From Escherichia coli (lineage in GTDB: Bacteria; Pseudomonadota; Gammaproteobacteria; Enterobacterales; Enterobacteriaceae): DNA of 64,000 bases. Numbering within the stretch: position 1 is the first letter of the stretch; each line of letters opens with the position of its first letter. A model generated the notes under the pieces. It did not search any database. It saw only the letters and a program-made list of their open reading frames with translations, and was not told the origin of the DNA. The position numbers were made by a program, and so were the translations under genes. The stretch is taken from NCBI RefSeq assembly GCF_050920415.1, contig NZ_CP169309.1, one strand, 5' to 3'. Of the stretch, positions 26,419 through 30,049 are shown in pieces.

Positions 26419-29094
26419 TTACTTCAACATATTACGAATGACATAATGCAAAATGCCGTCGTTCTGGTAGTAAGTCAACTCCGTCGCGGTGTCGATACGA
26501 CAACAGCAGGGTACGACTTCCTGGCTACCATCCGCGCGCGTAAACGTCACCGGAACCGTCGCACCGGGTTGTAGACTTTGCAGATCGACAATATCAATCT
26601 TCTCTTCCCCGATTAGCCCTAACGTTTTACGCGTCACGCCTAGCGGAAATTCCAGCGGCAGGATGCCCATGCCAATTAAATTCGAACGGTGAATTCGTTC
26701 AAACGATTCGGCAATCACAACACGAATACCAAGCAGACGCGGACCTTTTGCTGCCCAGTCACGGCTGGAGCCTGATCCATACTCTTTCCCGGCAATCACC
26801 GCCAGCGGCGTTTGCTCCTGCTTATAGCGCATCGCGGCATCATAAATAGAGACGACATCACTGTCAGGTAGATGCCGCGTCATCCCCCCTTCAACGCCAG
26901 GCACCATTTCATTACGAATGCGAATATTGGCGAAGGTGCCGCGCATCATCACTTCATGGTTACCACGCCGCGAACCGTAGGAGTTAAAGTCTTTGCGCTC
27001 AACACCCCGACCTTGTAGATATCGCCCCGCCGGGCTATCGGGCTTAATGCTGCCCGCCGGAGAAATGTGGTCAGTGGTAACCGAATCCCCCAGCATTGCG
27101 AGGATCCGCGCACCGTGAATATCTTCCACAGGTGCTGGTGTTGCCTGCATTTCATCAAAGAAAGGCGATAAGCGAATATAGGTTGAATCCTCCTGCCAAC
27201 CGTAGGTATCGGATCGCGCAACGTTAATCTCTTTCCATTCCGCCGTGCCTTCAAAAACTTCTGCGTACTCTTTGCGGAACATTTCTGTGGAGACTTGTTC
27301 TACCGCACGGGCAATTTCTTGTGCCGATGGCCAGATATCTTTCAGATATACCGGATCGCCTTTACGATCGTGACCAATAGGCTCAGAAGTGAGGTTAATA
27401 TTCATATTTCCCGCCAGCGCATAGGCAACCACCAGCGGCGGCGAGGCCAGCCAGTTAGTTTTAACCAGCGGATGGATACGGCCTTCAAAGTTACGGTTGC
27501 CGGACAGCACCGCACCGACGGTTAAATCGCCTTTTTTGATTGCCGTTTCGATAGGATCGGGCAATGGACCAGAGTTACCAATACAGGTGGTACAACCGTA
27601 TCCCACAAGGTTAAATCCCAGTTCATCCAGATACGGTGTCAGTTTCGCTTTTGCCAGATAATCAGAAACGACTTTCGAGCCTGGTGCCAGCGACGCTTTG
27701 ACCCACGGTTGCCGCTTGAGGCCCAGAGTTACAGCTTTTTTCGCCAGCAAACCTGCGGCCATCAGCACACTTGGGTTAGAGGTGTTGGTGCACGACGTTA
27801 TCGCAGCAATGACCACCGCGCCATCAGGTAACTGATACTGATGTCCGTTCATAACATAATCGACCGGCTGGCGATCTTTATGCGTGGCATTTACTTCCAG
27901 TTCGTTACTGGCGGCAAATGCTTTTGGTACATCGGGCAGTGCAACGCGATCCTGTGGGCGTTTTGGCCCTGCCAGGCTCGCTTCAACGTCATTCATATCC
28001 AGTTCTAACGTACTGGTAAAAATCGGTTCATCGCCCGGGTTACGCCACATGCCCTGCGCTTTGGCATATTTTTCGACCAACTCGACCTGATCTTCGCTGC
28101 GCCCGCTTAAACGCATGTAATCGAGGGTGACAGCATCGATTGGGAAGAAGCCACAGGTGGCACCATATTCTGGCGACATATTGGCAATGGTGGCGCGATC
28201 CGCCAGCGGTAGTGAATCCAGCCCATCACCATAAAATTCGACGAATTTCCCCACCACGCCATGTTTGCGCAGCATTTGGGTAACGGTGAGAACCAGGTCT
28301 GTGGCGGTAATACCTTCACGTAATTTTCCGGTGAGTTTAAAGCCCACTACGTCCGGGATAAGCATGGAAACCGGCTGGCCTAACATTGCGGCTTCGGCTT
28401 CGATCCCACCAACGCCCCACCCCAGCACGCCAAGGCCGTTGATCATGGTGGTGTGCGAGTCAGTACCAACGAGTGTATCCGGATAAGCAATCCATTCACC
28501 GTCCTGCAATTCGCTCCACACTGCTTTGCCGAGATATTCGAGGTTAACCTGATGGCAAATGCCTGTGCCTGGCGGCACGACGCTAAAACGACTGAACGCC
28601 TGCTTTCCCCATTTCAGGAACACATAACGTTCGTGGTTGCGCTCCATTTCCAGGCGCACGTTTTCTTCAAATGCCTCATCATCACCAAAACGATCGACGG
28701 TCACCGAGTGGTCAATGACCAGGTCGACCGGTGAGAGCGGGTTAACCTTTGCAGTATCGCCGCCGAGGCGTTTAACCGCTTCGCGCATTGCCGCCAGATC
28801 AACAACGGCAGGTACGCCGGTAAAGTCCTGCATCAGCACCCTTGCCGGGCGGTAGGCAATTTCACGGTCAGCATGGGCATTTTTCAGCCATCCCACCAGC
28901 GCGTAGATATCCTCTTCGGTAACCGAGTTACCATCCTGCCAGCGCAGCAGGTTTTCGAGCAAAACTTTGAGTGACTTAGGCAGACGGGTGATATCGCCCA
29001 GTGATTTGGCAGCAAGCGGCAGGCTGTAGTAGTGGTAAGTTTTATCTTTGGCCTGCAACGTGTCCTTACTGGCTTCTCGTAGGGTTGACGACAT
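26419..29094 (-). CDS. acnA: aconitate hydratase A
   Basis: 891-aa ORF; aconitase/IRP family. Confidence 0.96.
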
Positions 29095-29466
29095 AGCTCC
29101 TCCTTAATGACAGGGTTGCGAAGCCCTGATTCTCTTCAGGGTGAATATTAAAGATAACACAAACATTGCGTAACGATTTGATAACAACCCAAATTGATAA
29201 AAGAGGAGAAACCTTGTGGCAAAGCAAATGAAAACCCCGCCGCAGCGGGGTCAGGGATCAGTGAGTAATGATCCAGAGGAGTTCGGCCCAGAAGAGCATC
29301 GACAGAGAAAATGCGCCCATCCAGGACCAATATTTCATATTTGTGTTGATCATAGGCTACACCCTTAACGGTTATTACTTTGTGTTGAGATAACTCAACC
29401 TGTTATTGCTGCGGTGTATTAAAAGCCCTTTAATTCATTAAAAATGGGTAATAAGAATGATGATAA

Positions 29467-29634
29467 TTATTGTTTCGGCTGATCATCTTCAGCAAACAGT
29501 TCTATAAAGGCTTGCTGCTGCGTTGTTAGTTGCCAGTCGTCTGGAATAACGACGGAACATTCCCGTTTCGTTACTGGTTCATTGTCACTATGCTGACATA
29601 ATTGTGACGACTCCAGTTGCTCCTGACCGACCAT
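29467..29634 (-). CDS. yciX: small protein YciX
   Basis: ORF trimmed to MVGQEQLESSQLCQHSDNEPVTKRECS..., 55 aa; directly downstream of ymiA. Confidence 0.7.
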   Translation of the reverse strand: MVGQEQLESSQLCQHSDNEPVTKRECSVVIPDDWQLTTQQQAFIELFAEDDQPKQ

Positions 29635-29636
29635 AG

Positions 29637-29765
29637 TTATCCCCACACTTTCCAAATCAGCAGTGCGACAACCCCCCAGAAAAGTGCAGAACCAAGAAAT
29701 ACCGCTAGCCAGGCTTTGCGTTTTAATTCAGGGTCCCGGCGGGGTTCCTGATTTCCAGAAGGCAT
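29637..29765 (-). CDS. ymiA: small membrane protein YmiA
   Basis: 42-codon ORF below the ORF-track threshold, read by hand: MPSGNQEPRRDPELKRKAWLAVFLGSALFWGVVALLIWKVWG. Confidence 0.7.
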   Translation of the reverse strand: MPSGNQEPRRDPELKRKAWLAVFLGSALFWGVVALLIWKVWG

Positions 29766-30049
29766 TGCTAACCTCATATAATCGCCATCACTTATCAGCA
29801 AGACGTTGAACGATTGGTGTAATTAATCATACGATGAGACAAATCCTAAAGAAACTTTAGTCAAAAATCCAGCGAATTTACGAATCGTCTCCAGTGAATA
29901 ATTCAATCTTTTGACCTGAAATAGATATTTGAAAACTGGAGTTTGCGAGGCGGGTAATTAGACACTACTTTACAGGTGATTTACCCTATAAATATGAGGG
30001 ATAAAAATATTGTGCACGGTATACAAATAAGCAACAAAAGAGAATATAT

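Follow-up and report, generated by a model that had tools for sequence, protein, structure and literature searches.

The question raised by this locus is what kind of element lies between yciX and acnA in the window, by which we mean the whole stretch of 64,000 nucleotides of Escherichia coli DNA analysed here: a chance reading frame, a regulatory RNA, a control element of acnA or a gene for a small membrane protein. The original prediction had described a candidate micro-ORF of 26 codons, hydrophobic, oriented as ymiA and yciX, located 128 nt downstream of yciX and followed by an intrinsic terminator of its own. The central idea is borne out: a real and translated gene for a hydrophobic small protein with one helix lies on the strand of ymiA and yciX and has a terminator behind it, and the 128 nt are indeed found between the yciX stop (29467) and ATG 29338. 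The candidate is not new, because the feature coincides with the annotated gene ymiC, which is described by the family models NF041484 and PF23694 and has been published; we put the probability that it is this named E. coli gene at about 0.97. Coordinates of the features discussed are collected in the table.

The identification is based on annotation, family models and exact matches. RefSeq places the product WP_001310756.1, "small membrane protein YmiC", at exactly 29353..29258, and the 96-nt coding sequence is found between yciX and acnA in three divergent lineages, namely the nearest relative of the window, a K-12-like strain and Nissle 1917. The NCBIfam equivalog NF041484 scores 66.3 bits (cut-off 42) over YmiC residues 3-31, and the Pfam family PF23694, "YmiC-like", scores 87.5 bits (cut-off 27) over residues 1-31 on a model of 31 positions. 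An exact-sequence look-up of the 31-aa protein returned "Protein YmiC ... YMIC_ECOLI" on at least 1,000 contigs, and the 31-aa YmiC sequence given in PMC6001520 is identical to that of the window. By megablast, a 601-nt region is matched in 5,421 of the 5,426 complete RefSeq E. coli genomes, the features annotated beneath the match being ymiA, yciX and ymiC, with ymiC annotated in 5,400+ of the RefSeq genomes. YmiC of E. coli K-12 (UniProt YMIC_ECOLI) has the identical protein sequence, and its gene lies in the same orientation between yciX and acnA, with the same Shine-Dalgarno (SD) sequence; the differences from the K-12-like strain are one synonymous change at Ala14 (GCA here vs GCG) and a cleaner terminator U-tract in this strain (TTTT vs TTGT). 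ymiC is, hence, already known: a named and experimentally validated gene for which both NCBIfam and Pfam hold a dedicated model.

Table. Features of the ymiC locus and its surroundings, in window coordinates.
Feature	Coordinates	Strand	Description and source
acnA (aconitase A)	26419..29094	minus	downstream neighbour; starts 163 nt past the ymiC stop
Terminator U-rich tail	29224..29234	minus	TTTTCATTTGC here; TTGTCATTTGC in K-12-like strains
Rfam RF02079 STnc180 sRNA match	29224..29426	minus	ymiC leader, coding sequence and terminator
Intrinsic terminator hairpin	29233..29252	minus	8 bp, 6 of them G-C, tetraloop; scan and fold
26-codon sub-ORF	29258..29338	minus	begins at internal Met6 of YmiC
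ymiC coding sequence	29258..29353	minus	31 codons and TGA, MINTNMKYWSWMGAFSLSMLFWAELLWIITH; ORF list and RefSeq
Shine-Dalgarno-like TAAGGGTG	29360..29367	minus	upstream of ATG 29353
Perfect palindrome GTTGAG-TTAT-CTCAAC	29384..29399		yciX-ymiC spacer
yciX	29467..29634	minus	second operon gene; RefSeq
ymiA	29637..29777	minus	first operon gene, 46-aa membrane protein; RefSeq, NCBIfam NF000536, Pfam PF22868

In E. coli, ymiC is the third and last gene of ymiA-yciX-ymiC, an operon located between cysB and acnA. For yciX (55 aa) neither a Pfam nor an NCBIfam match was obtained; a 56-aa ORF occupies the yciX position in Kosakonia and Enterobacter, and no gene is called there in the Yokenella locus. 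The spacer that separates yciX from ymiC carries a palindrome whose two arms have changed together, to CTGAG...CTCAG, in Salmonella arizonae and Citrobacter amalonaticus, and a conserved ACACCGCAGCAATAA motif adjoins it at 29405-29420. On the other side of the gene, downstream of the terminator and proximal to the acnA promoter, positions 29140-29215 (minus strand) are nearly invariant among E. coli lineages and hold repeated TTATCAA / TGTTA-like motifs (TTTATCAATTTGGGTTGTTATCAAATCGTTACGCAATGTTTGTGTTATC), plausibly binding sites of a regulator of acnA. Two observations concern the integrity of the region: in one genome (NZ_CM130001.1) it matches at two separate places and only from ~29418 downstream, which points to an insertion or rearrangement in the yciX-ymiC interval, and of the 5,435 places where the ymiA-ymiC region matches, 6 lie on plasmid-labelled records.

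To follow the gene beyond E. coli we combined protein and DNA searches. An exhaustive phmmer search recovered YmiC-annotated homologs in Kosakonia, Enterobacter and Yokenella, in all of which the order topA-cysB-ymiA-yciX-ymiC-acnA-ribA is kept. The cluster representatives obtained are few (10) because gene finders rarely call ORFs of this size, and unannotated genomes were therefore scanned with a degenerate DNA pattern. Run on 100,044 species-representative genomes, the pattern, which forces nine invariant residues so that invariance at those columns holds by construction, yielded 78 loci, nearly all of them in Enterobacteriaceae and spread over ~25 genera, among which are Salmonella, Citrobacter, Enterobacter, Kosakonia, Leclercia, Lelliottia and Cedecea, as well as Trabulsiella, Siccibacter, Franconibacter, Atlantibacter and Buttiauxella. 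The ymiC frame is intact across the 78 loci: a start codon stands 5-9 codons ahead of the conserved Lys in every one of them, and the stop comes exactly 25 codons past this Lys in 76, the other two being a locus truncated at its end and one that is a codon shorter. A mid-helix column that the pattern does not force is occupied by Gln or Glu in 75 of the 78. The start of acnA is found 156-284 nt downstream of ymiC in 69 loci; among the remaining nine, five extend no farther than ~340 nt beyond the ymiC stop, while four are longer and gave no match to the acnA N-terminal motif.

Substitutions between genera follow the reading frame. Over the ungapped core of 25 codons, Nei-Gojobori estimates range from 0.59 to 0.94 for pS and from 0.17 to 0.35 for pN, so that pN/pS is ~0.2-0.4 in frame vs 0.6-1.8 in the other two frames of the same alignment, and mismatches fall on the three codon positions as 79/52/131. 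As judged from this pattern, the YmiC amino-acid sequence is under purifying selection. The check on conservation and synonymous substitution that accompanied the original prediction thus gives a positive answer (78 intact loci, pN/pS 0.2-0.4), and a chance ORF was rejected as an explanation, given a frame that is conserved, syntenic and under purifying selection in ~25 genera.

A few individual loci deserve separate mention. Two belong to non-enterobacterial assemblies: Terrisporobacter mayombei carries a YmiC identical to that of E. coli on a 454-bp contig of low coverage, and Chryseobacterium sp. 18061 has a ymiC locus close to that of Citrobacter sp. 18056, which belongs to the same project; in either case contamination or a wrong label seems to be the cause. 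Within E. coli, one rare variant (P0001) has lost its stop by a TGA to TGC change, which extends YmiC to 63 aa through a region where the terminator is deleted, and another (P0006) encodes a 28-aa form with a C-terminal frameshift.

Translation of ymiC is documented by published experiments, and the purifying selection seen here (pN/pS 0.2-0.4) lends it indirect support. VanOrsdel et al. 2018 (PMC6001520), who placed the gene between yciX and acnA, saw chromosomal YmiC-SPA by immunoblot, and according to the same work ymiC had already turned up as a positive, without being identified, when Nakahigashi et al. applied tetracycline start-site profiling (TetRP). Retapamulin start-site profiling (Ribo-RET; PMC11429745) likewise includes YmiC in a set of 17 small proteins that low Mg2+ induces. 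Start-site ribosome profiling, which had been put forward as a way to check the candidate, is hence already in print with a positive outcome (PMC6001520, PMC11429745). Concerning expression, PhoQ-dependent activity was seen with the DNA that precedes the ymiA-yciX-ymiC operon and negligible activity with the region immediately 5' of ymiC; GFP-YmiC fluorescence is seen at the cell periphery, indicating membrane localisation, and neither deletion nor overexpression of ymiC had an effect (all PMC11429745). In hydropathy, the Kyte-Doolittle peak of YmiC is 1.54 with a 19-residue window, slightly short of the classical threshold of 1.6 owing to the low value of Trp on this scale, and 1.77 with a 15-residue window; the GRAVY value is 0.61. 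These values agree with a single transmembrane helix but are borderline by that threshold. A scan for PhoP boxes upstream of ymiA (KGTTTA-N5-KGTTTA, up to 3 mismatches) gave no convincing site, the matches there being 3-mismatch ones at 29836-29863, and with 185 matches vs 142 expected the scan is uninformative.

The intrinsic terminator that had been predicted after the stop codon is real in this strain, with a stem that begins 5 nt past the stop when the stem of the scan is taken, or 7 nt when counted to its CCCCGC core. The hairpin, GACCCCGC-TGCG-GCGGGGTT at 29252..29233, is followed by TTTTCATTTG, and folding of the 41-nt segment gives -16.4 kcal/mol vs -9.6 +/- 2.4 kcal/mol for its dinucleotide shuffles, none of which, out of 200, is as stable (z = -2.88). 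Its tail in the window, UUUUCAUUUG, is short and interrupted vs orthologs with U6-7. A hairpin with a T-rich tail after ymiC was found in 68 of the 78 loci, with T-runs that are usually longer (T6-7); of the ten loci without a match, Citrobacter sedlakii at least has its hairpin just past the 70-nt search window. Since the stems of these 68 loci differ in sequence, the terminator is ancestral to the locus across genera.

Within E. coli the same terminator is polymorphic, at window positions 29224-29252 (minus strand) and at 1043-1191 of locus L003. In Nissle 1917 a 14-nt deletion takes out the 3' arm and the T-tract, and what is left of the hairpin region no longer folds (-3.5 kcal/mol, z = +0.6). 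This deletion is present in 1,138 of the 5,426 complete E. coli genomes (21%), including Nissle 1917, UPEC129 and ST131-like strains. The G-interrupted tail of the K-12-like strain, UUGUCAUUUG, is carried by 3,317 genomes (61%) and the window-like tail (TTTT) by 966; the three classes were assigned by junction-specific searches and together account for each of the 5,421 matching genomes. The terminator is eroding within E. coli, and it is not an obligatory part of ymiC, because genomes of all three classes keep the gene annotated throughout. For K-12, the validated small ORFs to which Adams et al. 2021 (PMC7815308) assign an RNA 3' end at a downstream distance below 200 nt include ymiC-acnA.

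With the gene identified, the precise product and the nature of the locus can be weighed against alternatives. The ORF first proposed does run in the minus frame from ATG 29338 to the TGA at 29260-29258 (MKYWSWMGAFSLSMLFWAELLWIITH), but its true start lies upstream, as the same frame is open for five further codons, as far as another ATG at 29353, giving 31 aa; in K-12 coordinates the annotated ATG lies at 1,335,572 and the internal one at 1,335,587. A 26-residue peptide made from ATG 29338, instead of the 31-residue form or besides it, is very improbable, although this ATG exists in frame, a Met is found at the equivalent position in 25 of the 78 loci, and a five-residue difference is below the resolution of the published tags, a C-terminal SPA and an N-terminal GFP with an added RBS, which cannot separate the two starts. 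Against it, the remaining 53 loci have V, L, H, A, I or Y at this position whereas the upstream start is universal (78 of 78; 77 ATG and 1 GTG), which settles that translation starts at ATG 29353. ATG 29338 also lacks an SD (0 to -2.8 kcal/mol), its best anti-SD duplex lying 16 nt away; for ATG 29353, in contrast, the SD core AAGG ends 9 nt ahead of the start and the duplex reaches -5.1 kcal/mol, to be compared with -5.5 for yciX and -3.1 for ymiA. The earlier remark that no obvious SD is present and that translation is uncertain therefore applies to ATG 29338 and fails for ATG 29353, which has an SD and a published translation product (PMC6001520, PMC11429745). Moreover, the Pfam model covers residues 1-31 and the NCBIfam model 3-31, RefSeq and PMC6001520 both list YmiC with 31 aa, and Ribo-RET density was scored at the annotated ymiC start (PMC11429745); the choice of start rests on the SD, on this profiling and on the conservation counts. 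The other alternative concerns the type of gene. A non-coding regulatory sRNA, STnc180, in which the ORF would be incidental, has in its favour the full-length and high-scoring match to RF02079 (cmscan, 202.7 bits for a gathering score of 50, model positions 1-208 of 208) and the origin of the STnc180 cDNAs in Hfq co-immunoprecipitation from Salmonella (Sittka et al. 2008, PMC2515195). The same authors, however, detected bands of 500-2000 nt and no discrete small RNA, and called STnc180 a likely processed mRNA; these bands fit an operon transcript of ~600 nt. Furthermore, the RF02079 consensus itself translates to MINTNMKYWSWIGAFSVSILFWAELIWIVFH, a 31-aa YmiC ortholog, the substitutions are codon-periodic with a low pN/pS in one frame only, and the leader fold in the style of Rfam does no better than shuffled sequences (z = -0.77), so that an incidental ORF is extremely improbable. 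Thus, while RF02079 and ymiC are the same locus from end to end, the Rfam type is an sRNA gene and the evidence gathered here is that of a protein-coding mRNA; the family appears to be a mis-typed segment of such an mRNA. The literature search found no paper that names both STnc180 and ymiC.

A further alternative is that ymiC acts mainly in cis, as an upstream ORF (uORF) whose terminating ribosome masks the 5' arm of the hairpin and sets read-through into acnA. The geometry would suit it, as stop and stem are separated by 5 nt here and by a short distance, mostly 3-9 nt, in the majority of orthologs, with acnA downstream, co-oriented and at the conserved spacing of 156-284 nt. Cunningham, Gruer and Guest are said to have located, in 1997, a distal acnA promoter, P1, ~407 nt upstream of acnA, and this position (-407) would fall upstream of ymiC. 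Adams et al. list ymiC-acnA as a possible uORF regulator (PMC7815308), and like regulatory uORFs described there, e.g. mdtU-mdtJI, ymiC is a validated small ORF that precedes a larger gene in the same orientation and has an RNA 3' end <200 nt downstream. Unlike them, YmiC is a conserved membrane protein that ends its own operon, and its effect on acnA is putative. For a purely cis-acting uORF, the purifying selection on YmiC with its conserved Trp, Ser and Gln/Glu would be superfluous, and so would the accumulation of the protein in the membrane (PMC11429745); in addition, the 21% of E. coli genomes without the hairpin still encode an identical YmiC. A mainly cis-acting role is accordingly unlikely. 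The uORF role and the protein role are compatible and not mutually exclusive, and the former is best kept as a secondary possibility of low probability alongside a YmiC protein.

It should be noted that the translation start region varies in places. The SD-like element is unchanged in four divergent E. coli lineages; most orthologs among the 78 loci have a weak SD, typically -2.8 kcal/mol. In Escherichia whittamii (L066, ~525-545) a ~17-nt segment with the SD-like TAAGGGTG is absent directly upstream of the ATG and the ymiC ORF is intact. Escherichia sp. MOD1-EC7003 (L069, 13468-13561) starts ymiC with GTG behind a stronger SD (AAGGGGGT), shows E-to-K and L-to-R replacements within the helix as well as a disrupted terminator downstream, and may represent a decaying or diverging copy. 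Sequestration of the SD in the leader, with ACACC paired to an SD-like GGGUGU, was considered and rejected: it is part of the MFE fold, but the fold stands at z = -0.77 vs shuffles.

Returning to ymiC as a gene for a 31-residue membrane protein, a working mechanism can be outlined. Low Mg2+ induces ymiA-yciX-ymiC in a PhoQ-dependent manner from a promoter upstream of ymiA, and translation from ATG 29353, with its modest TAAGG SD, yields YmiC. The protein, which is located in the inner membrane, consists of a short polar N-terminus (MINTNMK) followed by one predicted transmembrane helix, rich in Trp, Phe and Leu. In strains bearing the hairpin the transcript would end at this structure, which begins 5 nt past the ymiC stop, before acnA. 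Because a single Lys precedes the helix, the positive-inside rule suggests an N-in/C-out topology, which is consistent with the N-terminus having been tagged as cytoplasmic in PMC11429745. YmiC may dock helix-to-helix on a larger inner-membrane protein and tune it during Mg2+ limitation. From residue conservation, the contact face would likely comprise the KYWSW motif, two Ser, further Trp residues and the mid-membrane Gln/Glu (E24 in E. coli); the conserved pattern KYWSW...F..S.LFW.(Q/E)L.W looks like a helix-helix interaction face.

The proposed partner role is drawn by analogy with MgtS, MgrB and PmrR. Like these proteins, YmiC is an inner-membrane protein, predicted to be single-pass, of at most 50 residues and induced by low Mg2+, and it comes from the same Ribo-RET screen, with PhoQ dependence (PMC11429745), yet it has no sequence similarity to any of them. 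Partners are known for MgtS (MgtA/PitA), MgrB (PhoQ) and PmrR (LpxT), and some of the three have phenotypes (PMC11429745 and established knowledge), whereas YmiC deletion or overexpression is without phenotype (PMC11429745). On balance, we regard it as an even chance that YmiC modulates a larger inner-membrane protein under Mg2+ limitation in the way that these three do.

Concerning acnA, variation of the ymiC terminator could in principle rewire its expression, with transcription of the low-Mg2+ operon reading through in the deletion strains and, in the hairpin-bearing ones, the ribosome that terminates 5 nt ahead of the stem modulating this read-through, an unlikely scenario; perhaps the genomes with a G-interrupted tail (61%) also read through in part into acnA. 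If it were true, operon transcription induced by PhoQP and low Mg2+ would reach aconitase A in 21% of E. coli genomes.

Taken as a whole, ymiC is a 31-codon gene that was overlooked by standard gene finders until 2018, and that RF02079 corresponds to its coding region and terminator is a by-product at the level of curation. For the biology of E. coli, the terminator polymorphism described here could matter in studies of acnA regulation or of the output of the PhoQP regulon across strains.
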